This document shows positions 18,150-54,157 of a stretch of DNA of 64,000 bases, in pieces (position 1 is the first letter of the stretch; the number at the start of each line of letters is the position of its first letter). The position numbers and the translations under genes were made by a program. This stretch comes from a virus (Duplodnaviria; Caudoviricetes): positions 81,843 to 145,842 of IMG/VR virus record IMGVR_UViG_3300035101_000015, one strand, 5' to 3'. The notes under the pieces were generated by a model, which saw nothing but the letters and a program-made list of their open reading frames with translations, was not told where the DNA came from and did not search any database.

Positions 18150-18153
18150 CTCG

Positions 18154-20060: not shown

Positions 20061-20181
20061 CCCTAGATGTTGGGGTGCAAAAGCCAATCGCCCCAACACC
20101 TTGTGGCGCACACGAAAAGCGTTGACCGGCCCACGGTAACCCGTACCGTGGTCAGTCCGCGCAAGGCTCACGTGGGTGCGT

Positions 20182-20187
20182 GATAAG
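20182..20187 (+). promoter_or_regulatory. GATAAG putative promoter element upstream of the helicase
   Basis: About 25 nt before ATG 20212, ahead of an AGGAG SD. Confidence 0.45.
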
Positions 20188-20211
20188 GGCTAGCGCGAAC
20201 AGGAGAATAGG

Positions 20212-24072: not shown

Positions 24073-24078
24073 GGACCA

Positions 24079-24116
24079 GGCGCCCGCTCCTACCTTTTCT
24101 CCGGGGAGCGGGCGCC
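24079..24116 (+). terminator. GC-rich hairpin between the SSB-like gene and the polymerase
   Basis: ggcgcccgctcc...ggagcgggcgcc. Confidence 0.5.
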
Positions 24117-24135
24117 GAATCCCGTCTGGTGAAAC

Positions 24136-26079: not shown

Positions 26080-26128
26080 CTGGTGGGGCCTCCCGAGGTC
26101 GGGTATCCTCTGACCAAAGGAGGCCACC

Positions 26129-26308
26129 ATGCCCGAGAACGATGAAGGAATGGACAAGTTCGGTGTAGATGAAACGCAGGGACTCTCTTCCGAGGAGCAG
26201 GAGAAGCGCGCCGCCAAGGGCTGCCCACGATGTGGGAAGGAGCTCGTCAAGCACGGCGCGGTCATCCTCTGCCCCGACTGCGGAAGTGAGCCCTTCGAGA
26301 AGGGCTAG
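26129..26308 (+). CDS. Small zinc-ribbon protein (59 aa; not in the ORF track)
   Basis: AAGGAGG SD; MPENDEGMDKFGVDE...GCPRCGKELVKHGAVILCPDCGSEPFEKG. Confidence 0.75.
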   Translation: MPENDEGMDKFGVDETQGLSSEEQEKRAAKGCPRCGKELVKHGAVILCPDCGSEPFEKG

Positions 26309-26309
26309 G

Positions 26310-27677
26310 ATGGCAACACGGAAGAAGGGAAAGAAGAAGACTACGAAGAAGACCACGAAGAGAGCGGCGGTGAAGAGGACTCCCCCGCCGCCCGTGGTCA
26401 CAGGAGGGGGCGAACCGCTGGCGTCACTGGCGGTCGCTCCTCCCCCACCGCCCACGACGGACCAGGCATTCCTGGAGCGTCAGGCGGCACTCGATGCAGT
26501 GGCCAATGCCTTCAATGAAGATGGTCACATGGTCATGGTGCGTGGGGATGAGGCGCCCAATCCCTACATCCTGCGGCGGCCCACTGGCATCATGGAGCTC
26601 GACATCGACCTCGCTGGTGGCTGGCCTGCTGGTGGAGCGTGCTTCGTCTCCGGGCCGGACAACTCCGGCAAGACGTGGCTGATGCTCCAGACGATGGCAA
26701 TGCAGCAGCGCATCTACGGACAGCGTTGCGTGCAGGCTATGGCCATCACTGAAGGTGGCTTCCCATACGACCAGTGCATGCGGGTCGGGCTGCGCATCGC
26801 AGTGCCTGACGACATGATTCGCCAGTGGCAGCAGGTACGCGTCCAACGTGGCCTAGCCCCCTACACGGTGCAGGACCTCACCTACTTCAAGGAGCAAGTA
26901 GGCGACTTCCGCATCATCCGTGGGTCCACTGGTGAAGAAGTGTTGAGCGTGCTCCTCCAGGTCATAGGAACCCGAGCATGCTCCATCGTATGCGTCGACT
27001 CGCTACAGGGGCTCCGTCCCCTTGCCGATGCAGACAAGGAGATGGATGAGGCATCCAAGCGCGCGGCACACGCCTCGATGATTACCGAGTTCTTCAAGCG
27101 CTACATCCCCATCACCACAGGGCTGTCGGGAGTGAACTCGACCACGCTGCTGATGACGCAGCAGGTACGCTCCAACTCTGCCAAGGCAGAGGCTTCAGCC
27201 AACATCCAGAAGTACCTGAAGGATTGGGCCATCGCTGGCTCCTACGCCGGTCGTCACTACAAGCTGGTCGACCTCATCTTGTACGACGGCGCTGTCGACA
27301 AGCGGGAGGTGTCAGGGCAGGGCAAGATTGCCGTTGGCAAGACCCTGAAGTGGGAGTTCGAGAAGGGCAAGGCCGGCACCCACGACAACATCCAAGGCGA
27401 GGTCCAGTACCGGTACATGCTCAATGACGGTACGGCATTCCCACCAGGTGTCGACTTCCTAGGCACTGTCATGGACTCCGCACAGCAGCGTGGCGTCCTC
27501 CGCAAGGTGGGGAGCAAATACACACTGGTGCGACCAGACACCAACCAGGTGCTGGAGGAGTACTCCGCCCCGAGTCTCAAGGCGTTCAGGCGCTGCATGG
27601 AGCTCGACGAGGAGTTCGAGATGTCCGTCAGGCTGGAGGTACTCGCAGCAGCAGGTGTCCAATGCCTCTATCAGTGA
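26310..27677 (+). CDS. RecA/UvsX-like recombinase
   Basis: PTGIMELDIDLAGGWPAG, SGPDNSGKT, VCVDSL, TQQVR. Confidence 0.9.
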   Translation: MATRKKGKKKTTKKTTKRAAVKRTPPPPVVTGGGEPLASLAVAPPPPPTTDQAFLERQAALDAVANAFNEDGHMVMVRGDEAPNPYILRRPTGIMELDIDLAGGWPAGGACFVSGPDNSGKTWLMLQTMAMQQRIYGQRCVQAMAITEGGFPYDQCMRVGLRIAVPDDMIRQWQQVRVQRGLAPYTVQDLTYFKEQVGDFRIIRGSTGEEVLSVLLQVIGTRACSIVCVDSLQGLRPLADADKEMDEASKRAAHASMITEFFKRYIPITTGLSGVNSTTLLMTQQVRSNSAKAEASANIQKYLKDWAIAGSYAGRHYKLVDLILYDGAVDKREVSGQGKIAVGKTLKWEFEKGKAGTHDNIQGEVQYRYMLNDGTAFPPGVDFLGTVMDSAQQRGVLRKVGSKYTLVRPDTNQVLEEYSAPSLKAFRRCMELDEEFEMSVRLEVLAAAGVQCLYQ

Positions 27678-28174
27678 AGGTACGACTCGACTACGACGAC
27701 ACGCCGCGCACTCCCTACATCACCATCAACGTACGCACGGATGATGGTCAGGGAGCCTCGCAGCCCATCAACTACTTCAACCTATTTGGCAGCGAGCACG
27801 TCGTCTTCATCCTTCCTCCCGAGGGTGGACGCCCGATGAAGAAGAAGGCCATCAAGAAGCGGTCAGAGAAGCAGGAGACGAAGCGCATCGAGGCAGTCGG
27901 GGGTCGCCGCCACAGTGGAAGCGGCTCCCGTGCCGGGTATAAGTCCGACGGTAGCGTCGGTAACCGCTATCGAATGGAGAACAAGTTCACTACGGCCGAA
28001 TCGAGACGTGTGGAGCTGAAGGAGCTACGCAAGCTGAGAAGCGAGTGCCTGAATGGGCAGGTTCCCGTCTTCAACATCGACTTCCAAGACAAGCACACTG
28101 GCGCCACCAAGGAGAGCTGGGTGCTCATCCCTACCAAGGAGTGGGAGAGGCTAGCCAATGCTGAGAACGATTGA
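27662..28174 (+). CDS. PD-(D/E)XK nuclease, Holliday-junction-resolvase-like
   Basis: SEKQE..GGRRHSGSGS...KSDG...MENKFT pattern. Confidence 0.6.
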   Translation: MPLSVKVRLDYDDTPRTPYITINVRTDDGQGASQPINYFNLFGSEHVVFILPPEGGRPMKKKAIKKRSEKQETKRIEAVGGRRHSGSGSRAGYKSDGSVGNRYRMENKFTTAESRRVELKELRKLRSECLNGQVPVFNIDFQDKHTGATKESWVLIPTKEWERLANAEND

Positions 28175-29009
28175 GGAGCTGAGAGCGCTCGATGCACCTA
28201 CGAGGCAGGCGCTCGTCCACCACGCCATGCAACTCTCCACGCTGTGGTACCAGTGGAAGCTGCAGCATGATGGAGCGTTCACCATCACGGTGAAGCACGA
28301 GACGTCCAGAGAGCGGAAGACGGGCGTGCATGCCTCCGAGCTGCACGGCTGTCTCCGCAAGCTGGTCTATGCCGTTCGTGGTGAACCACGTCAGAGCGGC
28401 AACCGCGACGTGAACATGCAGCGCCGCTTCGACATCGGCACCATGACCCACGAGCTCATTCAGCACGAGTTCAAGGAAATGTGTGCTTGGCTGAGGCAGT
28501 ATGGGACCGAGCTCTACTTCGATGCGGAGGTGCCCATCCACCCAGGGCTCGGAGGTGTCGCCCAGGGGTATCACATGTACTCCAGTTGCGATGGTGTCTT
28601 CACCTTCTGCACCCAGGGAGCCCCCTACCTACGCGTAGGGCTGGAAATCAAGACGTCGTCGTACCTCGAGTTCGACAAGCTGACGAAGCCGAAGGAGGAC
28701 CACGCTTGGCAGACGTGCATGTACCAACGTGCGCTCGACCTGCCGTACATGTGGGTTCTCTACTACAACAAGAGCAACAGCAACACGACACCCAGCGAGG
28801 CGCCGTGGCTGTTCCAGTTCAACGAGCCACTATGGAGTGGCACCATCGAGCCACGCATCATGAGTGCGTACCAGATGGCCAGTGCAGGCCAGCTACCCGC
28901 ACGTGAGGAAGGCCGACCGTGCGGGTGGTGCGCGTGGGCGTGGACTTGTAACCCCAACTGCATGCGAAACAAGGAGGCTCAGGGCGGTAGCGCCGCCAGA
29001 GAGTTCTGA
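28158..29009 (+). CDS. Cas4-like / PD-(D/E)XK exonuclease
   Basis: HASELHGCLRK, GTMTHE, SCDG, LEIKT, QTCMY, C-terminal CGWC...C. Confidence 0.8.
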   Translation: MLRTIEELRALDAPTRQALVHHAMQLSTLWYQWKLQHDGAFTITVKHETSRERKTGVHASELHGCLRKLVYAVRGEPRQSGNRDVNMQRRFDIGTMTHELIQHEFKEMCAWLRQYGTELYFDAEVPIHPGLGGVAQGYHMYSSCDGVFTFCTQGAPYLRVGLEIKTSSYLEFDKLTKPKEDHAWQTCMYQRALDLPYMWVLYYNKSNSNTTPSEAPWLFQFNEPLWSGTIEPRIMSAYQMASAGQLPAREEGRPCGWCAWAWTCNPNCMRNKEAQGGSAAREF

Positions 29010-29587
29010 TGCTAGATGTACCCGAGCAGCTCGGGCTGTCGAATACCGAGCAACAGAACCTGCACCAGCAGTGGAGCACCTTCAACCAGGTGCAGCAGAG
29101 ATTGAAGCAGGAGGGATTCGTGCCGCTGCCGTACCCCCAATACGCGTGTCCAGGCTATCTGGATGTCGAAACGCTCACCGCACATGACTCACGCACTCTG
29201 ACGATGGAGTACGCCAAGTACAAGGCGTGGCGAGACTTCACTGCCGAGCGCCTGGCCTACTCCGAGCAGATTCTGCTGGAGACGAGCAACGAGATGAGCG
29301 CCATCGAGGCGCGCACGAAGAAGCGACTGCAGCAGGACTCCAAGAAGAAGTTCACGAAGGACGAGATTCGCGAGGAGGCCAGGAGCGACCAGCGCTACGA
29401 GCAGCTCAAGCTCCAGGAGCAGGAGAACAAGCAGCTCAAGGTCGCCTACGAGACACAGAGGGACCGGTTCTCCAACGGAATGAGCCTCATCTCGAGGGCC
29501 ATCACCATGCGTGGTCAGGACATCGAGCAGGGCAACCGAGGCAGCAACATCGGTGCCACTGGGACGCAGAGAGAGTTCGGAGGATGA
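29009..29587 (+). CDS. Coiled-coil protein (possibly UvsY-like recombination mediator)
   Basis: Helical, charged; next to RecA and nucleases; function inferred from context only. Confidence 0.55.
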   Translation: MLDVPEQLGLSNTEQQNLHQQWSTFNQVQQRLKQEGFVPLPYPQYACPGYLDVETLTAHDSRTLTMEYAKYKAWRDFTAERLAYSEQILLETSNEMSAIEARTKKRLQQDSKKKFTKDEIREEARSDQRYEQLKLQEQENKQLKVAYETQRDRFSNGMSLISRAITMRGQDIEQGNRGSNIGATGTQREFGG

Positions 29588-30087
29588 TTCACATCACCAT
29601 ACCGAGCATCCCCATTAGCTCCAACAACGCGTACTTCACGATGGTGAAGAGGCAGGGCAAGGGCAAGTCGACCCCCATCCGTGTGCTGACCCCCAAGGGG
29701 AAGAAGTACAAGAAGGAGACGGCAACCTACATCACCCGCCACTATCCCAGTGAGCTGAGGTTCTTTCAGCCCAACGTGCCGTACGCGTTGTTGGTCCACT
29801 TCATCTTCGGGGATGAGGTCACCCTGCTCAACAAGGGGTACCCAGAAAAAGCCAAGACTCGGTATAAGAAGCTCGACGTGGGGAACCGTCTCAAGCTATT
29901 TGAGGACGCTCTCACTGACGCAACCGGATGCGACGACTCGCAACACTGGATGGTATCCCTGAGCAAAGCCTGCGGTAGGTCCGACGAGACTCACCTGTGG
30001 GTTTGGAACATGGAAGATGAACCCTACAACCCCCTCGTCAACATCCGAGACACGCTCCTCGCCGCTGGCGAGTTGCAACAGGACTGA
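29584..30087 (+). CDS. RusA-like Holliday junction resolvase
   Basis: PISSNNAY; KLDVGNRLKLFEDAL..DDSQ matches the RusA DxDN..K..D..DD pattern. Confidence 0.8.
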   Translation: MIHITIPSIPISSNNAYFTMVKRQGKGKSTPIRVLTPKGKKYKKETATYITRHYPSELRFFQPNVPYALLVHFIFGDEVTLLNKGYPEKAKTRYKKLDVGNRLKLFEDALTDATGCDDSQHWMVSLSKACGRSDETHLWVWNMEDEPYNPLVNIRDTLLAAGELQQD

Positions 30088-30430
30088 GCTCTACCAGCTC
30101 TGCCGGAGGTCTGGTATCAACGTCCACCCCGGCACACCAAGAGAATGGCTACTCGGGTATCTCACCGGAGAATACGACGCTCCTCCCATGGCCGAGGAGG
30201 AGCACCCCGTCGACAAGTGGAGGCTTGGAATCATCAGCTTCCTTCTGGACTACTGGGAGCGTGTACACCCTCAGTTGAAGTGCCCAGCGAAGAACATGAA
30301 GCACTCTGACCCAGCGCAGCGCAATGAGCGGCCCTGCTTCGGGTGCTCGGACCTGCAGGTGATGACCTGCGTGGCCGACAACGCCAGGAATGAAGCTCGC
30401 ATACGTATGTACCAACCAGGGAGAAAGTAG
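30017..30430 (+). CDS. Hypothetical Cys-containing protein
   Basis: In operon; CPA...PCFGC...C; start uncertain. Confidence 0.6.
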   Translation: MNPTTPSSTSETRSSPLASCNRTELYQLCRRSGINVHPGTPREWLLGYLTGEYDAPPMAEEEHPVDKWRLGIISFLLDYWERVHPQLKCPAKNMKHSDPAQRNERPCFGCSDLQVMTCVADNARNEARIRMYQPGRK

Positions 30431-31388
30431 CGTGCAGCAGAACATGATTTCGATTGCCAACGCGCCGCGCGACCTCGCGGCCCTGACTCAGCTCAAGCGT
30501 CGTCAGCTCTACCTGCTGGCAACCAACCTGAAGCTGTTGAACGACGAGCAGCGGGAGTCGGCGTTCCTCGCCATGAGTCCCGAGCAGCAGGCAGGCACCG
30601 TCCTCCAGGGCCTCCAGGCCATGGATGCAGCCGGTGGTGCCCCGATGGAGGTAGCTCCGGCAGCACAGCCACAGGTCGCCCCGGCGGCGGTCCCAGTGGC
30701 TGCAGCTCCGCCCCAGGCTCCTGCACCTGTAGCACCAGCTCCGGCGGCCCCGGCCATACCCCCTGCAGGGTATGCGCCAGCTCCGATGGCCCCACCACCC
30801 GCACAGCCGGTCGCGGCGCCGCCCCCACCGCAGATGCCAGCTCCGATGGCTCCTCAGCCTCCCCAGGCACCTGCCGCTCCACCGATGCCCATGGCTCCAC
30901 AGGCGCCCCCACCGGCTCCTGCAGCGCCTGTGGCCGCACCACCGATGCCTCCACAGCCGGTGGCACCTCCTCCGCCCCAGGCACCGCCCCCGATGGCCCC
31001 TCAGCCTGTGGCAGCTCCGCCGGCCCCTGCGCCTGTACCCATGGCTCCACAGGCAGCACCCCCAGCCGCCATGCCTCCGAGGACCCCACAGACTGCCACC
31101 GACCCAGGTGCCAGTGCGGGAGGGCCCGCTCCGCAGCTTCAGCAGCTCGTGGGCATCCTGACGAAGATGAACGCTGGACAGGAGGCCATGGCGAAGGGCC
31201 TCGATGGCCTGAGCAAGAACGTCAACGGCTCCGTCCTGCTTCAGCGGGTCATCCTCCAAATCCTACTCACGCTCGCAGAGCTGCAGGGGATGGACCAGGA
31301 TGCACTCATCAAGCAGGTGAAGCTGGGTGACGCCGACGCCGTCGAGAAGTTCATCGCCGCGCTGGGAACCAGCCAGGGAAAATCCTGA
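30390..31388 (+). CDS. Pro/Ala-rich protein ending at a G-GGA-AAA slippery site (start probably 30432 or later)
   Basis: Long Pro/Ala/Gln low-complexity linker; ends ...cag gga aaa tcc tga. Confidence 0.75.
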   Translation: MKLAYVCTNQGESSVQQNMISIANAPRDLAALTQLKRRQLYLLATNLKLLNDEQRESAFLAMSPEQQAGTVLQGLQAMDAAGGAPMEVAPAAQPQVAPAAVPVAAAPPQAPAPVAPAPAAPAIPPAGYAPAPMAPPPAQPVAAPPPPQMPAPMAPQPPQAPAAPPMPMAPQAPPPAPAAPVAAPPMPPQPVAPPPPQAPPPMAPQPVAAPPAPAPVPMAPQAAPPAAMPPRTPQTATDPGASAGGPAPQLQQLVGILTKMNAGQEAMAKGLDGLSKNVNGSVLLQRVILQILLTLAELQGMDQDALIKQVKLGDADAVEKFIAALGTSQGKS

Positions 31389-37992: not shown

Positions 37993-38493
37993 TCACTTCA
38001 TTGAGCTAACCGCCCAGACGCTCAGTCCGAACACCGTGGCAGCACCGACCGCACCCACGATAATACCGAAAGTCCTGGTGTTATACCAAGGCGGGCCCTT
38101 GCGGAGCTCACCCTCAAGCTCTGCGCTTTTCTTCTCCACGCGTTCTAGGCGTGTCTGCAGGTCAAGACGAATCTCCTTGTGGGCGCTCTCCTCGATTTCC
38201 AGCAGTCCCTGCCAGTAGTCTCGCTCATTACTCTGCAGACGGCGCGCCGACGTGTAGCAGAGGTCGAGCTGGAGCCTGTACTGCTCCATGTAGTTCGCCC
38301 AGCGCAGCGCAGTGGCAGGGTCGTAGAGCTGGCCGGAGAACGGAGCCTTCTCTCCTTTGGTGAGTACCACGATGTTGTCGTCACCAGATGGCACGGGCGT
38401 GAGCTCGAACCGTGGTACGGGAGGCAGCTCCGGTACCTGTGCGGACAGGAAGGCTGGGAAGAGGAAGATGAGCAGGAAGACGCGCCAGTTCAT
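37993..38493 (-). CDS. Exported/membrane coiled-coil protein (spanin-like topology)
   Basis: N-terminal signal-like segment, coiled coil, C-terminal hydrophobic helix. Confidence 0.5.
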   Translation of the reverse strand: MNWRVFLLIFLFPAFLSAQVPELPPVPRFELTPVPSGDDNIVVLTKGEKAPFSGQLYDPATALRWANYMEQYRLQLDLCYTSARRLQSNERDYWQGLLEIEESAHKEIRLDLQTRLERVEKKSAELEGELRKGPPWYNTRTFGIIVGAVGAATVFGLSVWAVSSMK

Positions 38494-41400
38494 TGCTTGG
38501 CCTCCATCAGCTTGGCGAGCTCGAGCAGCATGGCCACTTTGATGTGCTGCTGTGGGTTCTTGCCCAGCATAGCCTTCATCATCTCGACCTTCATGGTCAT
38601 CAGCCCACTAAAGAGCTTCTTGGGGATGTGAGCCCGGTAGGCAGCGATGGCCTCGTCCCTGTTGTCGAACCCTAGGAAGACCTTGTACTCGTCGAATGTC
38701 CCATCTGGCTTCCTCTGGATGGCCCAGAACGCATGCTCAGACTTCTTCTTGGGACCAATGAAGACGTCCAGCCCATCATGGTCCCCACCCAGAGTACGGG
38801 GGATGTGCCCGTAGTCGTACCGGTAGCGCCGGCTCCAAGGCTTGCCCTTCTCGTCCCGGCCCATCATCACGAAGCCTCGGGGGCGGTCGACGCTGATGGG
38901 GATGCCCTGAAAGTCCAACTTGAACTTCGTGCTGTCGGTACTGGCCGGCTTGCCCTTGTACAGGCCCGTCGGGGCCGCTGCTGCCTTCTGCTGGACCGGC
39001 AGCGGGCGGCGGCGCGGGACAGCCGGCGCCGGGGGCGCGGCCTGCTGTGGGGCGGCCTGGGCCGCCTGCGGAGCTGCCTGTGCTGGCTGCTGGGCCGGAG
39101 CAGGCTGGCCAGCCAAGTGCTGACCCAGGGCGGTGCCGCCCGCTGCCGCCCCGCCGGCGGCGGCCCCGCCGGCGAGGGCCGCGCCACCGGAGAAGCCCTT
39201 GCCGAACTGCCCAGTGTAGAAGCGACGCAGCATGGGGCTCATGAGCGGCTGCTTGCCTGGGTCGAGCAGGCCGCTTCGGGCGCCCATCGGGTTCGACTCG
39301 ATGATTTTGAAGCCCCCACCTTTGACCGGAGCAACGTCGAAGGCAAAGGAAGTCCTACGGTGCTGCTCAGGCAGCTTGTCTACGATGTCCTGCACATACT
39401 TCGACGCCTCGCGCATCTTCTTGCGCCTGAGTAGCGACAGGGGATTGTAGCGAGGAGATGCAAGCGACGGGTCCACCTGGCCGGCAAAGGAGTGGACACG
39501 AATCTCCTCCGAGGCTGGGTTGCCGACGAGCTTCGACGCCAGCCGACCGAGCACTCCGGGGCGCTCGAACTGGACCTTCTTCTGGCTCAGCGCAGCCTTC
39601 GGGTTGCGCATGATGTCCTCGAGCACGCGTCCAGCGTAGGCAGGGTCCTTCTTCGCAGCGGTGTAGAACTTGTCCCAGTCGGACGACTGAGCGAACTCCC
39701 CTCCTTGTGCGCGCAGCTTGGCACGCAGCTTCTTGGACTCGCCTTTGGAGTAGTCACGCCAGAGCCTAGCGAAGTCGTCCGACTCCATTGGGAATTTGCC
39801 ACTGGCCTGAGCTCCGCCTACGTCCTTGAGGACGAATCCGCCTTTCCCGTACTGCTTCTGCAGCCGTTGCTGCAGCTTACCTACGAACTCCTCCTGCTGC
39901 TTCATTCCTCGAGGAGGCTTCTTCAACCCCATCTCCTTGAGGATGGACCTGACGTGGTCGCTCACACCTGCACTTTCAGGAAGGGCTCCAGGTGCATGGC
40001 GCTGAAAGTATTGATACTCCTTCAGCTTATTCTCACCGATGAGCTCATTGAGGCGAGATGCTGCACGCGTGCTGTGTGGGTCCGGTGTCGTAGCGCTACG
40101 CACCCAGGCAGTCTCTGTCTCAGGGTCGAAGTGATGAACTGCAGCTCGCACCTTCTTCGGGCGCTTTGGCTGGGCACCACCGGTGTAGACCATCTCATCA
40201 GCACTGTGACGGATGCGGTCGATGAAGCGCCTCGCACGACCCTTTGGCGCCTTCTCAGACACCGAGCGCACGAACTTCCCACCCGAGCCCTCTTGAATCT
40301 TCCGCAGGAAGGGGTCCGCACTGAAGCGCTTCTTGCGCATCGCCGCGTAGATGAGAGGAGCTGCAGCGGCTGCCGTACCCAGACCAGCAAGCAGCGGAGC
40401 CTTGCTCCTCCTACGCTTCTCTCCCTCCTCCTTGGCCACCTTCGCCATTGCGGTCTTCACGTCCGGTGGGATGTCCTGGTCGAGGTGGAAGCTCTTGAAA
40501 GCTGGAGCTCTGGGGGCGTAGTGCATCGGTGCTCTCTGCATTGTAACCCGCGCCTGCAATCCCTCATACTTCGAGGGGTTCTGGAGCATGTCCTTCTTCA
40601 TTGCGTGGGACATACCAGTCCCTACGCGTCCAATCACCGGGCCACCCTTGGTGTAGGAGAACTCGAAACCCCCGGCCATCGTGCCTTGGCGCTTCGTGCC
40701 CCTCTCGGGGAAGACGGAGCGCACGAACACATCCTTCTCTGCCTTGAACTTCGCCTTGACCGGTGTTGGCTTGTCCCGATGCCACTCGACCACACCCTCC
40801 TCAGTGGAGGGCTCGCGGCCTGCCTCGATGTCCGCAATCAGCTTCCGCTTCGCGGCGGGTGTACTAGCAGTCCTAGGCCGAGATAGCCACGGAGCTGCTC
40901 CCACTGCTTGCGCGAGAAGTTCTCGCTTCTGAGCGTATGGCAAACCCTCGACGTCCTTGCCTTTGAAGCGCGTGACGTCGAAGGCGACTGGGACGAGCCG
41001 CCCTTCTTGCTTCTGTTTCTCACGGCTCTTCCACACTCCTGCATTCAGAATACCGCCGACTCGAGCAGCCGGCAGAGCCTTTCCCCTATCATCCACGGCA
41101 TAGAGCTCTCCTCTCAGAATGGTGTCCTTGAGCCCAGACGGAGTCTTGCGCTTGTGGAAGCCTGGCAGCTTCTGCGTGTGGTCGATGACCCCAGAGGCTC
41201 TCTCCGTCGGGCGGTAGCTGAAGACGCGTGGAGTGGTTCCTGGAGACTTGAACTGGTACAGAACGTGGGCACCATCAATCTTCGCCTGTAGCTCGGTGTT
41301 TGGGTCATCGGTGTTGAGCTGTCCAACGCCACGCTCCTTGTACTTCGGCTTGCTCGAGGGAAGTAGCTGACTGGGGCCTGCCTTTCTGGACGGTGTGACG

Positions 41401-42200
41401 TTCTGCACCATCCAGTCACCACCTTTGGTACGCCTCAGAGCGAACTCCTGGTTCTCCTTGCCCTTGTAGACGTTGAACCGGACATCCTTCTTGCTCGAGT
41501 GCAGGACCTCTGCCTTGTCCCTCTGCGCGAGCTCGACGTCGCCCTTGCCATAGCCCTTCTCGATGCGCCCCTTGAAGTCCATGTAGCCGATGGTGTGGGT
41601 CGGCTGCTGCACGGCCAAGGTGTGCTGGCCTGGCGGCGGGAGCCCTCCACGCATCGCCCAGGAGTGAGCTCGGCCGGTCCGGGGGTCCCCGAGCCTCAAG
41701 TCAAAGTGCTCCCCCGCCCGCTCGGCCTGGTGACGGTGCAGAGCCATCTCCCAGGTCCTGGGGGTAGTGAATTTGGGCAGCGCGCGGATGGCCCGGCTGG
41801 GAATACCGGGGGCGAACTCACTGGCCTTCTCGAGCTCCTTGGCGCCCACAGTGACGTGCAGAGGCGCCCGCCCGAGCCCGTGCTCCTTCCGCAGGGCCTG
41901 CACCTGCTCCCACTTCACCGGCATCAGCTTGTACTGCCGGCCCTTCTTGGGCTGTGGGGCGGAGATGACCCTAGGGTCGAGCTTCATGCCCTCAGCCGGC
42001 AGGTCCCCGAGCTGCTGGGCCAGGAGCTCCTTCTGCTTGACCCGCTTGAGCTCCTTCGGCCGGACCAGCGTCAGATGGTGACGTGGGCCGAACCTCTCCG
42101 CCCGGTACGCCTGCTCCGCCTCTGGGACTTTCCCGACAATCAGCTCCGGCGGCACGTCGGCGTACCGGAGGATTGAACTCTTGAGCTGGGTGTCCGGCAC
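38490..42200 (-). CDS. Multidomain polyprotein: 2H phosphoesterase / LigD-type 3'-phosphoesterase / ATP-dependent ligase / ATP-grasp / inorganic pyrophosphatase-like
   Basis: HLTL..HVTV (2H); HQAERAGEHFDLRL..SWA..LAVQQPTH..YMDFKGRIEKGYGKGDV (PE); AKIDG, RGEL, AFDV, EEGVV, KAK, VGTG (ligase plus OB); FVLKD..EIRVH..FDV..IIESNP (ATP-grasp); YDYGHIPRTLGGDHDGLDVFIG..DEYKVFLGF (InPase). Confidence 0.82.
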   Translation of the reverse strand: MPDTQLKSSILRYADVPPELIVGKVPEAEQAYRAERFGPRHHLTLVRPKELKRVKQKELLAQQLGDLPAEGMKLDPRVISAPQPKKGRQYKLMPVKWEQVQALRKEHGLGRAPLHVTVGAKELEKASEFAPGIPSRAIRALPKFTTPRTWEMALHRHQAERAGEHFDLRLGDPRTGRAHSWAMRGGLPPPGQHTLAVQQPTHTIGYMDFKGRIEKGYGKGDVELAQRDKAEVLHSSKKDVRFNVYKGKENQEFALRRTKGGDWMVQNVTPSRKAGPSQLLPSSKPKYKERGVGQLNTDDPNTELQAKIDGAHVLYQFKSPGTTPRVFSYRPTERASGVIDHTQKLPGFHKRKTPSGLKDTILRGELYAVDDRGKALPAARVGGILNAGVWKSREKQKQEGRLVPVAFDVTRFKGKDVEGLPYAQKRELLAQAVGAAPWLSRPRTASTPAAKRKLIADIEAGREPSTEEGVVEWHRDKPTPVKAKFKAEKDVFVRSVFPERGTKRQGTMAGGFEFSYTKGGPVIGRVGTGMSHAMKKDMLQNPSKYEGLQARVTMQRAPMHYAPRAPAFKSFHLDQDIPPDVKTAMAKVAKEEGEKRRRSKAPLLAGLGTAAAAAPLIYAAMRKKRFSADPFLRKIQEGSGGKFVRSVSEKAPKGRARRFIDRIRHSADEMVYTGGAQPKRPKKVRAAVHHFDPETETAWVRSATTPDPHSTRAASRLNELIGENKLKEYQYFQRHAPGALPESAGVSDHVRSILKEMGLKKPPRGMKQQEEFVGKLQQRLQKQYGKGGFVLKDVGGAQASGKFPMESDDFARLWRDYSKGESKKLRAKLRAQGGEFAQSSDWDKFYTAAKKDPAYAGRVLEDIMRNPKAALSQKKVQFERPGVLGRLASKLVGNPASEEIRVHSFAGQVDPSLASPRYNPLSLLRRKKMREASKYVQDIVDKLPEQHRRTSFAFDVAPVKGGGFKIIESNPMGARSGLLDPGKQPLMSPMLRRFYTGQFGKGFSGGAALAGGAAAGGAAAGGTALGQHLAGQPAPAQQPAQAAPQAAQAAPQQAAPPAPAVPRRRPLPVQQKAAAAPTGLYKGKPASTDSTKFKLDFQGIPISVDRPRGFVMMGRDEKGKPWSRRYRYDYGHIPRTLGGDHDGLDVFIGPKKKSEHAFWAIQRKPDGTFDEYKVFLGFDNRDEAIAAYRAHIPKKLFSGLMTMKVEMMKAMLGKNPQQHIKVAMLLELAKLMEAKQ

Positions 42201-42238: not shown

Positions 42239-42778
42239 TCAACTGCTCAGAAGCTGGTCTGCGGTGTCATCATACCAGCGCTCGATGCGGCGGCTCCATG
42301 GCCAGGTCCAGAAGTACTGGGCGTTGGTGAAGTGGCCAATCATGCGCCGGCGGTACTCCGAGTCTCTCAGCAAGTGCCCACCGTAGTACTCCATGTCGGC
42401 CCGCATGCTCTCCTCGTAAGCCTCCATCTCGTACTTCATGCGGAAGTAGGCGAAGAAGCAGGGGAACCAGAGCAGGAGGTACTTGATGGCGTACCAGAGG
42501 AACCACGTCTTCGCACGCTGGCGCATGTGGACTCGTTCGTGCCTGAGGATGGCAGCTCTCCCCTCCCATGGCCAGCTCATCCACCTGCTCGGTGTGTAGA
42601 CCGTGTAGCCGATGGTGGTGGTGAAGGTGAGCATGAAGGAACGCATAAGCCCGAAGGTGATGATGAGCAACCCGATGTTGCAGAGCTTCATCAGCGTACT
42701 GTCGGCCTTCGGCACCAGGCGGAACTCCGGGAACTCCTTCTGGGTCTCGGTCACCACGAGCTGCATCGGGTCATCCAC
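42239..42778 (-). CDS. Hydrophobic protein with HExxH motif (putative metallopeptidase)
   Basis: ILRHERVH..Q, EMEAY; hydrophobic segments; follows the holin/spanin-like genes. Confidence 0.6.
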   Translation of the reverse strand: MDDPMQLVVTETQKEFPEFRLVPKADSTLMKLCNIGLLIITFGLMRSFMLTFTTTIGYTVYTPSRWMSWPWEGRAAILRHERVHMRQRAKTWFLWYAIKYLLLWFPCFFAYFRMKYEMEAYEESMRADMEYYGGHLLRDSEYRRRMIGHFTNAQYFWTWPWSRRIERWYDDTADQLLSS

Positions 42779-43160
42779 GAGCGCGCCTCCCTACCTCTAG
42801 CAGGTACTCGTTCAGTGCATCCGGGTCCTCCAGGAGCTCGTCGACCTTTCCCTCCTGCTCCTCAGTCAGGTCGTTGACAGCCTCCTGGTGCTCCTCGATG
42901 ACCTTGGCCGACTTGCGCAGCAGCTCGGACTTGGCCTTCTCCCTCTCCGCTGCAGCTCTGGTCTCGACGTCGGCTATCTTCTTCTTGGCGGCATCGCTCT
43001 CGTGGTCGTCGTTGACCACCACGACCTCACCATGACTCCGACCGGTCAGGTAGATGACCAGGGCAAGAGGGAACAGAAGGACCCACATCCAGTACTTCTT
43101 GAACCAGGGCCACGCCTTGGTCCTCAGCCACCCCCAAACCTTCAGCAGGAACAGAGGCAC
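42771..43160 (-). CDS. Single-TM coiled-coil protein (inner-spanin-like)
   Basis: N-terminal TM then charged coiled coil. Confidence 0.5.
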   Translation of the reverse strand: MPLFLLKVWGWLRTKAWPWFKKYWMWVLLFPLALVIYLTGRSHGEVVVVNDDHESDAAKKKIADVETRAAAEREKAKSELLRKSAKVIEEHQEAVNDLTEEQEGKVDELLEDPDALNEYLLEVGRRARG

Positions 43161-43161
43161 T

Positions 43162-43551
43162 CTACACCTCCGGTGGCAGCTCCGCCGGTGAGTCTGGCAG
43201 CTTCACATCCACATCGTACTGCTTGAGGATGAGCTTCTTGAGTACCTTGTAGAGGAACCCACTGAACCAGGCAATAGTGCAGGCCACGAAGAGCTTGCTG
43301 ATGTACCCCTCAACATCGCCGAACAGGAACTTCGACGGGATGAAAGCGTACACGGCACCGAACACCAGCGGGATGGCATAGAGGATGACCTGGTTGTACC
43401 ACTGAGAGAACTTCGTGACGTACGGGTTCTTCTTCTTGAGGTGCGGCCAGATGAGCTCGACGATGCGCCGAGTGAAGAAGACAGCGATGACCACCATCAC
43501 GGCCAGGGCGAGCACGCCCGGGATGTTCAGGTTCTTGAGCAGGTCATCCAT
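43162..43551 (-). CDS. Putative holin (3 TM)
   Basis: 129 aa, three hydrophobic helices, charged C-terminus. Confidence 0.55.
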   Translation of the reverse strand: MDDLLKNLNIPGVLALAVMVVIAVFFTRRIVELIWPHLKKKNPYVTKFSQWYNQVILYAIPLVFGAVYAFIPSKFLFGDVEGYISKLFVACTIAWFSGFLYKVLKKLILKQYDVDVKLPDSPAELPPEV

Positions 43552-47126: not shown

Positions 47127-47735
47127 TCATCCAAATCGCAGTGTCCAAATCACCTCGAGCTCGAAAGCTGAGGTCTTGGAGATGGTGTCAAAGGTGTCGT
47201 AGGCGACGATGTTGTTTCCGTAGAAGGCCGGGTTCGCGTCGCTCAAGAGCATCCCGACCTCAGATAGAGGCACGCTGATGAATGGGGAGAAGCTCACTTC
47301 TTCCAACGTGTAGAGTCGCTTGAAGGTGACGGAGGTGGGTGTGTCGTGCTCCGCTGGCGCTTGTACCTGCCCAATCCAGACGCCGGAGCTCACCTGCACT
47401 GGACGCTCTAGGCGAAGCACGGTCGGGTCTACATCGGTCTGGTTGAAGCTGCCCACCGGCCCATACGTATCGAGTGGCGGAGCATCGGCGAAGTCGGGGG
47501 CAATCTGACGGCTGCCACCGATGCCGAAGCCGAAGTACTTGACCCGCTCGTCGTTCTGCGGCGTATCGGGGCTGAACGACTCGAAGGCTATGAGCTGGGA
47601 TAGCCATTCCCGACCGTAGTCGAGGAAGATGTTGTGCCCTTCACGACGAGCCACAATCTTGCCTCGCTCGCGGGCGGTGATGAAGAGGTTGCTCTTCACC
47701 GCAATGTCTTCACTGAGGTTGAACTTGCCTCTCAT
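47127..47735 (-). CDS. Baseplate/tail-collar-like protein (paralogue of the upstream gene)
   Basis: HNIFLDYGREWL, YFGFGIGG, LERPV, SEVGM, AYDTFDTI. Confidence 0.6.
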   Translation of the reverse strand: MRGKFNLSEDIAVKSNLFITARERGKIVARREGHNIFLDYGREWLSQLIAFESFSPDTPQNDERVKYFGFGIGGSRQIAPDFADAPPLDTYGPVGSFNQTDVDPTVLRLERPVQVSSGVWIGQVQAPAEHDTPTSVTFKRLYTLEEVSFSPFISVPLSEVGMLLSDANPAFYGNNIVAYDTFDTISKTSAFELEVIWTLRFG

Positions 47736-48406
47736 GCAAACCGTACCCGCCAGATGAACTCCAGCTCGCTGTTGTCGTCAATGAGGATTGTATCAAAGCC
47801 CACGTAGGCTACCAATGTGTTCCAGGGGTCGCCGTCTGGGTCGGCCGCCGAGGTGTACAACCCAGCCTCGGAAATCGGGAGCTCAGTCAGCGCTCCGTAG
47901 ATGTAGTCGCCTGAGCTGGCATCCAGCAGGGCGTGGACAGTGACCTCGTAGAGCGTCTGATGTGTGGTGTAGAGATTGGGTGGCTCGATGAACCACCTGT
48001 CACTGGGGTCACCTGGATAGGGGTTGAGGCCACCAGTGCGCCTCACCGGGCGCTCCAGTGTCTCGATGAGCGGGTTGATGGGCGTCTCTGCGTTGTACTG
48101 CTTGCCGTCGCTGTATCCCGTCATCGTGTAGTCGGGGGCGTAGCGAAGTGGCGCTACGTTGACGGGGTATGCCGACAGGATGGGGTCGATGTCCACCAGT
48201 GGGTTTCCTTGTTTCACCCCACCGATGCCGAGGCCCATGTACTTCAATCGGTCAGAGCGCTCCGGTATCGGAGCAGCGAATGGTCCCAGCAGGCCCACCA
48301 TCTGAGCGAGGTATTCCCTACCCACCACGGTCCAGACGTTGTGAATCTCTCGCTTCTCTACGAGCTCACCACGCCGGCGGTGCAGGATGGTGACGTTCGT
48401 GCTCAT
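47732..48406 (-). CDS. Baseplate/tail-collar-like protein
   Basis: HNVWTVVGREYL, YMGLGIGG, LERPV, SEAGL, AYVGFDTI; ATGA overlap at 48406. Confidence 0.6.
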   Translation of the reverse strand: MSTNVTILHRRRGELVEKREIHNVWTVVGREYLAQMVGLLGPFAAPIPERSDRLKYMGLGIGGVKQGNPLVDIDPILSAYPVNVAPLRYAPDYTMTGYSDGKQYNAETPINPLIETLERPVRRTGGLNPYPGDPSDRWFIEPPNLYTTHQTLYEVTVHALLDASSGDYIYGALTELPISEAGLYTSAADPDGDPWNTLVAYVGFDTILIDDNSELEFIWRVRFA

Positions 48407-51400
48407 GGTGGCCCCACCAAGCTCAAGGAGCCACAATAGTCACCAGCCTGCATAGCCGGAACGCTACCATAGAATGGGTCGGTGACGCCCATGTCGTACG
48501 TCCACGCACTCGGGCCACTGACTCTGGTGAGGATGCGGACCCATTCAACGGTGATGGCCGCCTGGTCCTGCTTGCGGATGCTCACCTGAATCACATCGCC
48601 TGCGGTCACGGCCAGGCTGATGGAAGCGAGAATCTCGGTGTTGATGTTGGCCCAGAAGTCGTAGGTAACCTCGGTCACAGCAGTGACGTTCCGAACAACC
48701 AACGTCATCTGCACGCCATATGGTGGGTCCGTCCCCGGAGGCACAGGTGTGCTATCCGTCCACCCCAGCATGGCCAGTCGCACCTGAGACAAGGTACCTG
48801 TCTCATTGGCCACGGTGTCACTGAGCGTGAGCACGTACCCGGTAGAGCCGGCTGGGATAGAGAAGCCCGACCCAGGGGCAGCCTCCGTCTCGTCTCCGGT
48901 GAACATCTCGTAGACGGAGGGAGCGGTGCCGTAGTAAGGGTCCGTCACTCCCTCATCGAAGGAGAAGACTGAGTCGAACGTGGGGGTGAAGTCCGAAGCA
49001 AACGACTCGCACACGTACACGTCGAGCTCGTCGCCAGGGCACAGCCACGTCTTGTCGAAGCCCCACAGAACAGGCTCTACAGACAGGGGCCAGTAGGTGG
49101 GACTCGTGCTCGGGTCGTCGTCGCTGTCGAAGTCGTTCCGCCAATTGCCGTTGTGACCAGCGGGGTCCCCAGGCCATGGCTGTCCACCACCAGGCCACGT
49201 CTGGTCGAAGATGTATGACGCCCCCAAGCGGTCCGCGCAGAGGGCATCATCCAGCGTAAGAACACCACTCATCGTGACGGTATCGTTGACGCTGATTTCA
49301 TCCCCATCCACATCCGAGGCGTAGAGCTCAACGATGAACTTGGGGTAGGTGTAGGTCGGCTTGATTTTGAGGATGAAGTTCCGAACGAAGAGCAGCGAGC
49401 TCAGGTTGAAGGCGCGCCCATCCACTCGGATGGCGAAGGTGTGGAACTTCTGCACCTCGGTGAACACGCCCTGGTTCAGGATTCCCTGGAACCAGTCTGG
49501 GTCCTTGACGTAGTCGACGACTTCCGCACCCTCCACCAATGGGTCGAAGCGGGTGACGGTGTCACCAACTGCGTACCGCTGCCCCGTGTCCGGGTTCTCC
49601 TCTAGGTCGAGAATCTTCGGGAAGGTGTAGGAGCGGACGATTTCAGGATTGTCTGTGTCACGGATGAGGATGCGACCTTGGTCACTGAGGAGGTCCTTGC
49701 GAATCTCCTCGATGGTGCCATCCTCCTCAGCGAATGGCAGGCCCAGGAGAATCTGGGAGCCGATGCGCAGGTTGCGCACGGTTGGCCCGTAGCTGCGAGC
49801 GTAGAGCAGGCCCGAGACGGCACTGAGGTAGTCGACGTTTTCCGGGAGCTCCTCGAGCTGGTCACGCGTGAGCTCCACGGCCAGCCCGAAGTTGGCCTCG
49901 ATGGTGGGGCTGTTGTCGAGGTAGGTGTACTCTGCCCAGAAGCGGTCCGGTGGTCTTTCACCCTCGAAGACGTCGGGTCCACCAGCCTGCCCAGCGACGA
50001 AGCGGATGCAGTTGCGACCACGATACTCCTCGATGAAGAAGTCGAGGTTGCGGCGCAGCGTCGACTCGTCTTCATCCAGCACCACGCGTTCTTGGAGGAC
50101 TGGTATGTCGACCACCAGCTCATCAACTGGGATTCGGCCCTTGCGCGTGATGCTCGCCAGCCGAACCGACAGGCCCTCCGTCGCCACGTAGTGCCCGATG
50201 GGTGCGAAGTCCACCGGCAACCTCGAGGGAAAGGTCTCCGATGCTCCATACGCCGTCGTCTCTACGACACCGGAGTACTGCTCCAGAGAGGACAGTGAGG
50301 TGTTCTCCTCGACCACCTCGGCATCCACGTAGTCACCCTGTGTGACAAGGCCGTTGTAGAAGTCGAGGAGCTCGGAGCTAATCCACCCACAGATGGTGTA
50401 CTCCTGCGCAGGCAACGACGTGTCTGATGGGACCGTAGCAGCAAGGCCCTCTTGAACAACTACACGCTGGTAGGGGTAGTCATCGGTGGCGTCGGTCACC
50501 ACCCGGTCGATGACATGCGCCACATCCCCCAGGACCAAGAATGCGCCTTCCAACGCCAGGCCGCTCAACGACCGGTCTACCTTGAATGTGCGCTCTTTGG
50601 TGGCGACTGCGTAGCCAGAGCCAGTGATGGACCCGTTCGTGTCCCCAACCGTGAACAGTGACGAGCTCGTATCCGAGGCAACCGTGAAGGCGAATGGGGC
50701 GTCGACTCGGATGATGTAGCCACCAGCAGTCGTCTCCACGAGGTGGGCATCCATACTCGGATGGACTTGCTGGCGTAGGTACCGACCAAGACCAGCTACG
50801 AAGGCTGGAGGGTCGATAGGGTCCAGCGCAGAGAAGGCGATGACCTGGTCCTCCGCGAAGAGAGGAGAGGACAGAACGAGCCGAGTGTTGCTCACCCGTG
50901 CAGACGTGAACTCCACTGACTGGACTCCACCAAAGACCGGGAAGGTCTTGGTGAGCTCTGGGATGGGCTCAGCTAGCAACGTGTCGTAGTGGAGCCACCG
51001 CCGGATGAACGTGCGCTGGATGTCCCGGATGCTCTTGGAGTACTCGTGCTGCCACAACGTGTAGAGCTCGGTGGCAGCTACCTGCGCCAGGGAGCCCCAG
51101 AACACCTGCAGGCGGTCCGCATCCTCCACGATTTGCCAGAAGTCGGCGATGTAGTCGAAGAGGAACCCGAGGTTTGGGGTACACGCTCGAGGGAGTGGGG
51201 ACTCGAGCACGTTGATGAGGGTCGTCGCCCGCTGAAGTCCGGTAGGCGTACTCCACAGCACCCCATCGAACACTTGCAGGTCGAACACGTAGAAGCCAGG
51301 CACGTCAGGGTAGAACGTGGGCTTGGCCGTCGTACGCCCTGAGATGCCCACCTGACGCACGAGCTTGTAGGAAGTGTTCAGCAGGTCGTCTGGAATCTGA

Positions 51401-52580: not shown

Positions 52581-53417
52581 CTACCTACGAACTCCTGCTG
52601 TAGCCCACATAGGCGCCGTATCCCAGTTCATCGGTGGCATCACTCGAAGCGGTACCATTGGAGCACTGAAGATGAAAGGGTCTGGTCGTCTCTCGCCATG
52701 TCGATGGACAATGTGCTCCTTCCACGGCTCCTCACCTGTCACTATCCTCATGTCGACGGAGTCGAACTCGTAGATGTAGTCGTTGGACATCGACGCGTGA
52801 GCGACCAGGTCATCACTAGCCATCCAAGTGTGGCTGTGGCCACCTTCCCACCTCAAGTAGAGCAGATGATGGATGCTCGCCGACCAGATACGTGCCCCGA
52901 GCTTCATCATCTCGTGACACCACCGAATCTCCTCTGCCTCCTTCTGCTCGTGGAAAGCTCGCCCTTCCTCTGCGCGGAATACCAATGTGGGACCATGCAC
53001 ATGCATGGCGTACTTGTTCTGACCCTTCTCATTGAATAGAGCCATGCCCCGTGACGGAGTGGCAACGAAGTGGCGCTGCTTGCCGTAGACTTCCGCCTTC
53101 CCACTCTCGATGAGCTCAACCATCTCCGACAGGTATGCAGGTCCATACCAATCATCGTCATCCCACATCGAAATCCACCCGCCACCACGGTCACGGATGG
53201 CGTACATGCCTTCATTCCGAGCGTGGCTCTGATGCCCACGACTGGTAACAACGAGGTGTGGAACAATGCCCAAGCGTTCGCACCCTCCAACAGCATCACC
53301 ATTCTCGACGATGCAGAGCCGCTTGTCTGGATGCTCCTGCCGTCGGAAGTTGTCCAGGACCCACGGAATCTGCTTCTCCCGACAGCAAGGAACGACGACC
53401 CAAATATGCGTACTCAT
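52581..53417 (-). CDS. Glycosyltransferase family 2 (GT-A fold)
   Basis: VVVPC, ARNEGM, ISMWDDDDWYGPAYL; TGATG overlap with the upstream gene. Confidence 0.8.
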   Translation of the reverse strand: MSTHIWVVVPCCREKQIPWVLDNFRRQEHPDKRLCIVENGDAVGGCERLGIVPHLVVTSRGHQSHARNEGMYAIRDRGGGWISMWDDDDWYGPAYLSEMVELIESGKAEVYGKQRHFVATPSRGMALFNEKGQNKYAMHVHGPTLVFRAEEGRAFHEQKEAEEIRWCHEMMKLGARIWSASIHHLLYLRWEGGHSHTWMASDDLVAHASMSNDYIYEFDSVDMRIVTGEEPWKEHIVHRHGERRPDPFIFSAPMVPLRVMPPMNWDTAPMWATAGVRR

Positions 53418-54157
53418 CAGAAGTGCGCTCCCCACCAGTTGACGTTCACGCCAGCACCACCAGCTCCCGCTTCGGCAAAAGCTACAACGGCGTTCGCGCC
53501 ACGCAGAGCAGACCCACTCAGAGTACAGTCCATACCGTAGGTGCCTGCCGCACCCTGAATGTTGTATGCAGCAGAAGCCCCCAAGGCGGAAGAATAGTTA
53601 GCGTTGAAGAACGAGGTCTGGGTGTCCTGGTACGAGGAGACGGTCTGGCTGCCATCGATGCCAGTACCGCGTATCACGAGGGCGCCGGCGGTCACCGTCG
53701 TGATGTCGATGTCCATGTCACTGAACACGCCGCCAGCACCGTAGCTGACAGTGTTACTCGCCTCTGGAGCCTGCTGTTCGGCGTTGTAGATGTCGATGGC
53801 GCAACCGTTGCCATTCTGAACTTGGTCGCCAGGGTAGTTGTCCTCGTTCCACCTCACCGTAATGGTGTTGGTACCGGCGGATGGGTTCAGCAGGTACCAG
53901 ATGTCTATACCGACCTGAAACCCAGTCTGCTCGTAGTGTAGGTGTGCCCCAAGAGTGAGAGATGAAGACCCATACGTCATCTCATCACCAGAGTAGAGAG
54001 CAGTAGTGCCTGAGTTGCCACGAGACATGGCGCACACCACCAAGATGCGGTTGGAGTTGCTCCCAACCGTATGGCTCCAACTCAACTCGAACGGAGGGGA
54101 GCCGGGCACCGACCACTGCGATGCATTCCCGCTGGTATTGCCGATGCCGATGGCCAT
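53417..54157 (-). CDS. Putative virion structural protein
   Basis: Ser/Gly-rich beta protein; SWSHTVGSNSNRILVV. Confidence 0.55.
   Translation of the reverse strand: MAIGIGNTSGNASQWSVPGSPPFELSWSHTVGSNSNRILVVCAMSRGNSGTTALYSGDEMTYGSSSLTLGAHLHYEQTGFQVGIDIWYLLNPSAGTNTITVRWNEDNYPGDQVQNGNGCAIDIYNAEQQAPEASNTVSYGAGGVFSDMDIDITTVTAGALVIRGTGIDGSQTVSSYQDTQTSFFNANYSSALGASAAYNIQGAAGTYGMDCTLSGSALRGANAVVAFAEAGAGGAGVNVNWWGAHF

Follow-up and report, generated by a model that had tools for sequence, protein, structure and literature searches.

A candidate polyvalent phage effector organised around a LigD-like, 3'-end-cleaning DNA ligase core

Phage-type polyvalent proteins are defined by a fixed core to which effector modules are attached and freely swapped, and the inorganic pyrophosphatase (InPase) and 2H phosphoesterase modules are listed as specific to this type (Iyer et al. 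2017, PMC5512222). In that survey the 2H versions were never seen together with RNA ligases, and its main text makes no mention of DNA ligase, LigD, end joining or non-homologous end joining (NHEJ), peptide ligase or R2K (PMC5512222). The R2K clade of ATP-grasp enzymes is predicted by its describers to add peptide tags to proteins in phage–host conflicts (PMC4431377). Here we describe a protein that combines modules of all these kinds on one chain. It is encoded in a 64,000-nucleotide stretch (the window) of the IMG/VR viral record IMGVR_UViG_3300035101_000015 (Duplodnaviria; Caudoviricetes; positions 81,843 to 145,842). The explanation that we favour, with fair though far from complete confidence, is that this polyprotein is a polyvalent effector with a LigD-like, 3'-end-cleaning ligase core, connected through linkers that bear Lys-x-Ala marks to a 2H phosphoesterase, a membrane-flanked ATP-grasp enzyme and an InPase. 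It would probably be cut apart and used early in infection, and it may be delivered by the virion.

Window positions 38490–42200 (minus strand) form a single uninterrupted open reading frame (ORF) of 1236 codons, which starts with GTG at 42200 and whose stop overlaps by 4 nt the start of the next gene, encoding a 166-residue protein. An identical 1236-residue protein was called on a 16-kb JGI contig that is independent of this record. The whole polyprotein is very basic (9.5 % lysine, net charge +92). A previous reading of the bare DNA letters (the sequence-only reading) had described five domains on this ORF, and we recovered all five to within a few tens of bases of where it had put them, save that the ATP-grasp domain, although real, starts earlier than was thought, near residue 630 (nt ~40313). 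Five catalytic domains on one chain of a viral contig exceed the two or more unrelated enzymatic or effector domains by which polyvalent proteins are recognised. The window is the final 64 kb of a 145,842-bp contig with a CheckV completeness of 78 %. The source is a large phage of the lytic type, with a plus-strand block (window 15991–31388) coding for helicases, primase, family A DNA polymerase, a UvsX-like recombinase and a Cas4-type exonuclease. Among 50,697 GenBank phage records we found no near relative. The features of the polyprotein gene, from its 5' end, are as follows.

38490..42200, minus strand: whole ORF, 1236 residues
41832..42149, minus strand: 2H phosphoesterase (Pfam 2H-SAK), residues ~18–123, with HLT42 and HVT115
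41820..41828, minus strand: junction mark K125-A-S between 2H and PE, in a linker of low model confidence
41400..41759, minus strand: LigD-type 3'-phosphoesterase (PE; LigD_N), residues ~148–267, catalytic residues kept
40746..41318, minus strand: ligase nucleotidyltransferase domain, residues ~295–485, with K307-I-D-G, R330, E365, F407-D408, E468-G469 and K482/K484
40476..40745, minus strand: ligase OB-fold domain, residues ~486–575, corresponding to the Chlorella virus ligase OB region and matched by DNA_ligase_OB_2 in a relative
40434..40457, minus strand: junction marks K582-T-A and K587-V-A at the end of the core
40335..40400, minus strand: Ala-rich hydrophobic helix before the ATP-grasp module, residues 601–622, a possible membrane anchor
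39201..40313, minus strand: R2K-like ATP-grasp carboxylate-amine ligase module, residues ~630–1000, with K725, K792, Q873, E899-x-R901, D955 and E968-x-N970
39108..39200, minus strand: Gly/Ala-rich helix closing the ATP-grasp module, residues ~1001–1031
38931..39107, minus strand: disordered linker rich in Ala, Gln and Pro, with K1072-A-A and K1084-P-A
38568..38927, minus strand: predicted phage-type InPase, residues 1092–1211, with D1140-x-D1142-x-x-D1145
38493..38567, minus strand: conserved C-terminal tail with K1221-V-A

The arrangement of these modules in related proteins is the first line of evidence for our explanation. Among 5.8 billion proteins searched, we found 24 close homologues that share residues ~125–590 of the polyprotein at 42–76 % identity, and in 22 of them this PE-ligase core is N-terminal. 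Around the core, the close homologues carry GNAT, SNF2 helicase, SET, PF05708 peptidase, AAA_18 P-loop, a second InPase or 2H modules, and an InPase tail is common to 17 proteins. A scan of IMG/VR added 33 further PE-ligase loci, mostly on contigs of 100–200 kb, where the core either stands alone (460–520 residues) or is fused to SNF2, NUDIX, GNAT, AAA_18, Peptidase_C39 or DUF4269. All proteins of the family are rich in lysine. Across about 60 metagenomic phage contigs only the PE-ligase core is conserved, with the 2H, ATP-grasp and InPase modules each missing from most. Such shuffling among homologues, together with signature modules (InPase and 2H here; SNF2, GNAT, NUDIX and peptidases in the relatives), is the behaviour of polyvalent proteins. 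Because the homologues keep only the PE-ligase and shuffle the rest, we read the chain as a string of separable effectors instead of a five-step machine. Four such units can be distinguished: the 2H domain; PE plus ligase; the R2K-like ATP-grasp enzyme between two hydrophobic helices; and the InPase.

The core itself has the order and the active-site residues of a LigD-type enzyme. Its PE matches Pfam LigD_N at residues 155–234 (E 3e-10) and can be aligned to the solved structures 3P4H, 3P43 and 3N9B (Candidatus Korarchaeum, Methanosarcina, Pseudomonas LigD). All six catalytic residues are kept (H157, H165, D167, R169, H202 and Y206), which we take to correspond to the His-His-Asp-Arg-His-Tyr set of Pseudomonas LigD. 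The ligase matches PHROG_114 ("ATP-dependent DNA ligase") with E 1e-12, and Pfam DNA_ligase_A_M matches residues 304–433 just under its cut-off in the protein scan (E 6e-5) and over it in a six-frame search of the genome (27.1 bits). Several NCBIfam LigD models give weak matches that extend over both domains, in the same order as in LigD; the equivalog models among them reach 65 bits, with a cut-off of 989. The KIDG motif lies at residues 307–310, motifs I, III, IIIa, IV and V and the OB fold are present, and an alignment of 25 sequences keeps K307, D309, G310, R330, E365, F407, D408, E468, G469, K482 and K484 without exception. An AlphaFold2 (AF2) model of residues 145–585 has a predicted local distance difference test (pLDDT) score above 90, and the top Foldseek matches are all ATP-dependent DNA ligases (E 8e-12 to 1e-8), including archaeal ligases, T4 ligase, LigD (6NHX, 1VS0), human Lig1/3/4, Lig E and the ASFV ligase. 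There is no RNA ligase of the Rnl or RtcB type among these top matches. We found no Pfam or NCBIfam match to a polymerase/primase (POL) domain in the polyprotein and no Ku (PF02735) in a six-frame search of the 78 %-complete genome.

The relatives also suggest what kind of ligase this is. Five of them (G001, G003, G005, G008 and G010) encode a separate canonical ATP-dependent ligase of about 450 residues besides the PE-ligase. In the closest complete relative, G001 (186.7 kb, terminal repeats), this is a 457-residue ATP-dependent DNA ligase (entry G001:C1:111763-112329; L043:7764-8330). The contig that contains our window begins at the equivalent of ~108.1 kb in G001. Since this is 3.6 kb short of the syntenic spot, the missing 22 % of the genome probably holds a canonical ligase too. 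Because the closest complete relative has this separate enzyme, the PE-ligase is probably a second, specialised ligase. The position of the contig break and the second ligase in relatives weaken the idea that the PE-ligase is the sole replicative ligase of the phage.

The second line of evidence comes from the junctions between modules. The motif PE(G/D)(V/I)KTA closes the ligase in almost every member of the family, and homology between relatives stops directly after it. In the polyprotein as a whole, K-x-[AS] is rarer than expected from composition (9 against 19, Poisson P = 0.009), and six of these nine motifs fall in linkers between domains or in the tail, which together make up 12 % of the chain (binomial P = 1.6e-4, with linker limits that were chosen after seeing the models). 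The linkers are the low-pLDDT parts of both AF2 models. For 30 homologues, we defined a module boundary as the place where BLAST homology to this polyprotein begins or ends; 52 of 60 such boundaries have a K-x-[AS] within 12 residues, compared to 13.7 ± 3.4 under random placement (maximum 26 in 2000 trials), with an effective sample below 60 as the homologues are related. ORFs beside the terminase are 2- to 3-fold enriched in the same motif (14 against 4.9 expected in a 731-residue ORF). A 223-residue ORF of the head region was considered as a candidate peptidase gene, and its PDB sequence search was empty.

The modules that accompany the core were identified with different degrees of certainty. 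The sequence-only reading had made its case depend on profile support for 2H, ATP-grasp and InPase domains. The first and the last of these score above the Pfam cut-off, and the ATP-grasp assignment is supported by homologues that match R2K_3 and by an AF2 model. For the 2H module, the 2H-SAK match covers residues 23–121 (E 2.5e-10, 41 bits against a cut-off of 27), and the two H-x-T motifs that characterise the superfamily are present (HLT42 and HVT115). Only one relative (P0021) has a 2H module. There it is C-terminal instead of N-terminal, is 36 % identical and keeps both HxT motifs. Structure prediction, proposed with the sequence-only reading as a check, agreed with the PE-ligase and ATP-grasp assignments and left the 2H fold unconfirmed: pLDDT is 30–50 over residues 1–128. 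This AF2 model is unreliable because the alignment holds only two sequences there; a search for shorter 2H homologues that would deepen it found none.

The InPase matches Pfam PF18823 at residues 1092–1211 (E 1.3e-27, 96.8 bits against a cut-off of 26.8), and D1140, D1142 and D1145 line up with the metal-binding signature of family I pyrophosphatases. Judged by the profile match and this signature, the module is a predicted phage-type pyrophosphatase. Its relatives in PHROG and tblastn searches bear annotations as minor head, portal, structural, tail or DarB-like proteins, which lends indirect support to carriage in the virion. One example is the portal protein gp19 of Pseudomonas phage Pa193 (PDB 9b41 chain L), whose deposited sequence has an InPase-like domain at residues 636–728; the published cryo-electron microscopy model of this portal comprises residues 94–528 only, and the paper does not mention the InPase-like domain (PMC11456595). 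The genome studied here also encodes a second InPase protein outside the window (genome 9765–12197, minus strand; 810 residues, 10.2 % lysine, 22 K-x-[AS] against 13.9 expected), in which the InPase is the only recognisable domain (E 5e-38).

The middle module (residues 592–1075) has no Pfam match and no sequence match in the PDB. An exhaustive HMMER search nevertheless returned 237 relatives, the majority of which stand alone and have 430–480 residues. In an alignment of 60 sequences, K792, Q873, R901, D955, E968 and N970 are invariant, and K725 and E899 are nearly so; this is the classical ATP-grasp constellation. Among these 60 homologues, 33 match Pfam R2K_3 and 13 match R2K_2, and ESM Atlas features agree with the R2K assignment. 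The AF2 model (pLDDT 89.9) matches LysX/ArgX, D-Ala-D-Ala ligases (Ddl), RimK, PsnB and PurK with E values of 1e-6 to 5e-4. Thus, the module is an ATP-grasp enzyme of the carboxylate-amine (peptide or amino-acid ligase) type, closest to the R2K clade, and not a nucleic-acid enzyme. Of the features that characterise R2K.3, it has the ATP-grasp fold with the conserved Lys, Lys, Glu/Gln, Asp and Glu; in place of E-x-G-D the family keeps an invariant E-x-N (E968, N970).

With these assignments in hand we can propose how the polyprotein may work, where we infer packaging, cleavage and injection as well as every substrate. The pieces would probably be carried in the virion. A phage head protease or another peptidase would cut the chain at the linkers, and the pieces would act early in infection. 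The PE-ligase could remove 3'-phosphate or 3'-ribonucleotide blocks and reseal nicks and breaks made in phage DNA by host nucleases, or it could seal the genome ends. The 2H domain might open 2',3'-cyclic phosphate ends or destroy cyclic or 2'-5' nucleotide signals. The pyrophosphatase could clear inorganic pyrophosphate (PPi) and so pull ligase adenylylation forward, or it might hydrolyse a nucleotide signal. The ATP-grasp enzyme may work at the membrane, where it would tag a protein of the host or of the phage with an amino acid or a peptide. A bolder form of this proposal holds that the virions of a clade of large uncultured phages contain a LigD-like end-cleaning ligase. Freed from the polyprotein by Lys-x-Ala cleavage, it would repair or seal the genome in the first seconds of infection, before phage genes are expressed, as an injected counter-defence accompanied by a membrane-directed tagging ATP-grasp enzyme. 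We regard this version as tentative, and as rather doubtful in its entirety.

Several observations weigh against the explanation that we favour. The gene for the large terminase subunit (genome 68552–70381) is about 50 kb from the polyprotein gene, and none of the neighbours matches a PHROG or Pfam virion family in a scan of 30 neighbouring and head-region proteins. The position inside a virion gene cluster, as claimed in the sequence-only reading, is thereby neither confirmed nor refuted, the nearest neighbours being membrane proteins. These small flanking proteins could be a holin/spanin-like lysis set, or else partners of the polyprotein. The MPTase peptidase (PF18818) was not found in the whole genome. 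No T4-type prohead protease appeared in a six-frame genome search either, which was uninformative as its control also stayed silent everywhere. A high lysine content occurs in phage RNA polymerase too and may only reflect nucleic-acid binding. The boundary statistics come from homologues that are related to each other. Finally, no other ligase was detected in the 78 %-complete 146-kb contig.

This last observation leads to the alternative that fares best among the three we considered. The polyprotein might never be packaged and might serve inside the cell as an accessory or even the main DNA ligase or repair enzyme of the phage. Its hydrophobic helices would then hold it at the membrane, and it would be produced along with neighbouring membrane proteins. 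It is the sole ligase found in the available 146 kb, its gene lies outside the head/terminase module, small membrane proteins flank the gene (one of them translationally coupled), and two hydrophobic helices lie within the chain. Against this, a canonical ligase is encoded separately in complete relatives, and the contig break falls directly ahead of its expected position; elsewhere, the InPase module occurs in fusion with virion proteins; and both the junction marks and the shuffling of modules fit cargo or effector proteins. We therefore consider a purely intracellular enzyme unlikely, and prefer the processed effector.

Somewhat less probable still is that the five domains form one packaged and injected assembly line for end healing, in which 2H opens a cyclic phosphate, PE removes the 3'-phosphate, the ligase seals, InPase clears PPi and the ATP-grasp enzyme takes part in the repair chemistry. 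This was the essence of the sequence-only reading. The order 2H-PE-ligase makes chemical sense, all active sites are intact, and removal of PPi favours ligase adenylylation (PPi clearing is discussed in PMC5512222). The missing 5'-kinase step could be supplied by a P-loop kinase-like domain such as that found ahead of the PE-ligase in one homologue (P0024). However, the polyprotein itself contains no 5'-kinase, and this domain of P0024, tried as a candidate, has no similarity to polynucleotide kinases in the PDB. The ATP-grasp module is of the carboxylate-amine ligase type with mostly stand-alone relatives, and SNF2, GNAT, SET or NUDIX modules take the place of the others around the conserved PE-ligase. 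What survives is a plausible end-healing and sealing set of 2H, PE and ligase; the ATP-grasp enzyme does not belong to it as a nucleic-acid enzyme, and the single five-step machine is not upheld.

The weakest alternative, a tRNA repair enzyme that works with the Ro60/Y-RNA/tRNA locus of the phage against anticodon nucleases, draws on the best Pfam match of the 2H module (the version in "Swiss Army Knife" RNA-repair proteins), on a Ro60 gene with tRNA-like RNAs in the same genome and on the action of LigD PE and LIG at 3'-ribonucleotide ends, but is very improbable given a ligase that resembles OB-domain DNA ligases in its fold and in all its top structural matches, with no Rnl-type or RtcB enzyme among these matches, the lack of a 5'-kinase, and a Ro60 gene that is 31 kb away on the opposite strand. 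The functional link to Ro60 made in the sequence-only reading also fails on co-occurrence: of 12 phage genomes with the PE-ligase, a single one has TROVE (Ro60), and the nine that are at least 90 % complete all lack it, as does the closest complete relative.

The surroundings of the gene have few recognisable features. The polyprotein gene belongs to a co-directional minus-strand run from 63460 to 32017, which also encodes three giant acidic ORFan proteins (1366, 1187 and 1391 residues, the last with a weak PKD match). Four small membrane-type proteins bracket the polyprotein (window 42239–43551 and 37993–38493, both minus strand). One is a multi-pass membrane protein of 129 residues that is 86 % identical in the closest relative, far above the conservation of its neighbours; a second, also of 129 residues, has one N-terminal membrane helix and a coiled coil. 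Upstream lies a 179-residue protein with a HERVH (HExxH) motif. This protein could be the processing peptidase, and was set aside as such as it matches no family. The 166-residue protein downstream has a signal peptide and a C-terminal anchor. In the PHROG and Pfam scan of the 30 proteins, only the terminase, a glycosyltransferase of family GT2 and the weak PKD domain gave matches, and none of the ORFs beside the terminase (genome 61602–74256) matches a PHROG head family. The GT2 gene (window 52581–53435, minus strand; E 4e-10) lies among the giant acidic ORFans. Three neighbours had no tblastn match in the 50,697 phage records, an ESM Atlas search with a 677-residue neighbour was uninformative, and six-frame searches of the genome for tail sheath and gp25 were negative. 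A gene neighbourhood conserved across the family was looked for and rejected, as only the closest relative shares neighbours. Within the window, two adjacent paralogues of 202 and 234 residues (47127–48436, minus strand), both of PHROG_5417, are kept as a pair in the closest relative.

Known virion-delivered counter-defences, such as Dar proteins, Alt, Ocr-like proteins and virion RNA polymerases, block or modify host factors. If the PE-ligase is injected, mending the damage would count as an anti-restriction strategy of a new class, and the phage would provide a compact LigD-like enzyme that needs neither Ku nor a polymerase. Our literature searches found no paper on a virion-delivered DNA ligase with a 3'-end-cleaning domain, and searches that paired LigD with polyvalent or virion terms returned nothing. 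The family is also a natural experiment, in which modules are shuffled around one fixed core, and its members provide many substrates on which the proposed Lys-x-Ala processing signal could be tested. The polyvalent repertoire gains two modules, the PE-ligase and the R2K-like ATP-grasp enzyme.

Four described systems come close to this polyprotein. It resembles the internal proteins and Alt of T4 and the head cargo of phiKZ and SPN3US, which are basic proteins thought to be carried in the head and delivered with the DNA, and which have short conserved motifs at module ends; carriage is only proposed here. T4- and phiKZ-type prohead proteases cut after (L/I)-x-E or (S/A/G)-x-E, whereas the marks in our family are Lys-x-Ala, and no protease gene was identified in this phage. 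With LigD and the archaeal stand-alone PE (3N9B, 3P4H, 3P43, 1VS0, 6NHX), the core shares the order of PE before LIG, the PE catalytic set, ligase motifs I–V and the OB fold. Unlike LigD, it is part of an effector chain in a phage polyprotein, has no POL domain and no Ku that we could find, and its sequence identity to LigD is low.

The ATP-grasp module has in common with the R2K clade (CDC123/R2K.2/R2K.3; Burroughs, Zhang, Aravind 2015; PMC4431377) the ATP-grasp fold with a pre-ATP-grasp domain, relatives that match R2K_3 or R2K_2, and the predicted role in peptide tagging during phage–host conflict. It differs from R2K.3 in its E-x-N instead of E-x-G-D, in having no Pfam match of its own and in its fusion into a polyprotein. 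The closest likeness is to the phage-type polyvalent proteins (Iyer, Burroughs, Anand, de Souza, Aravind 2017, J Bacteriol, PMC5512222), for example the P1 DarB-like and the MuF- or portal-fused ones. Like these, the polyprotein strings unrelated enzymes on one chain in combinations that are shuffled among relatives, with InPase and 2H here and SNF2, GNAT and peptidases in the homologues, and it has a predicted role in early host conflict. The sequence-only reading had not recognised the fusion as described; the 2H and InPase modules are in fact described for polyvalent proteins, and it is the ligase, LigD, NHEJ and R2K side that is absent from the main text of that survey. Unlike the surveyed proteins, this one comes with no MPTase that we could find and is neither fused nor adjacent to MuF, portal or head genes; it has Lys-x-Ala/Ser junction marks instead. 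Its 2H domain adjoins a DNA ligase, while those of the survey were never beside RNA ligases, and its centre is formed by a LigD-type PE with a DNA ligase, followed by an R2K-like ATP-grasp enzyme.

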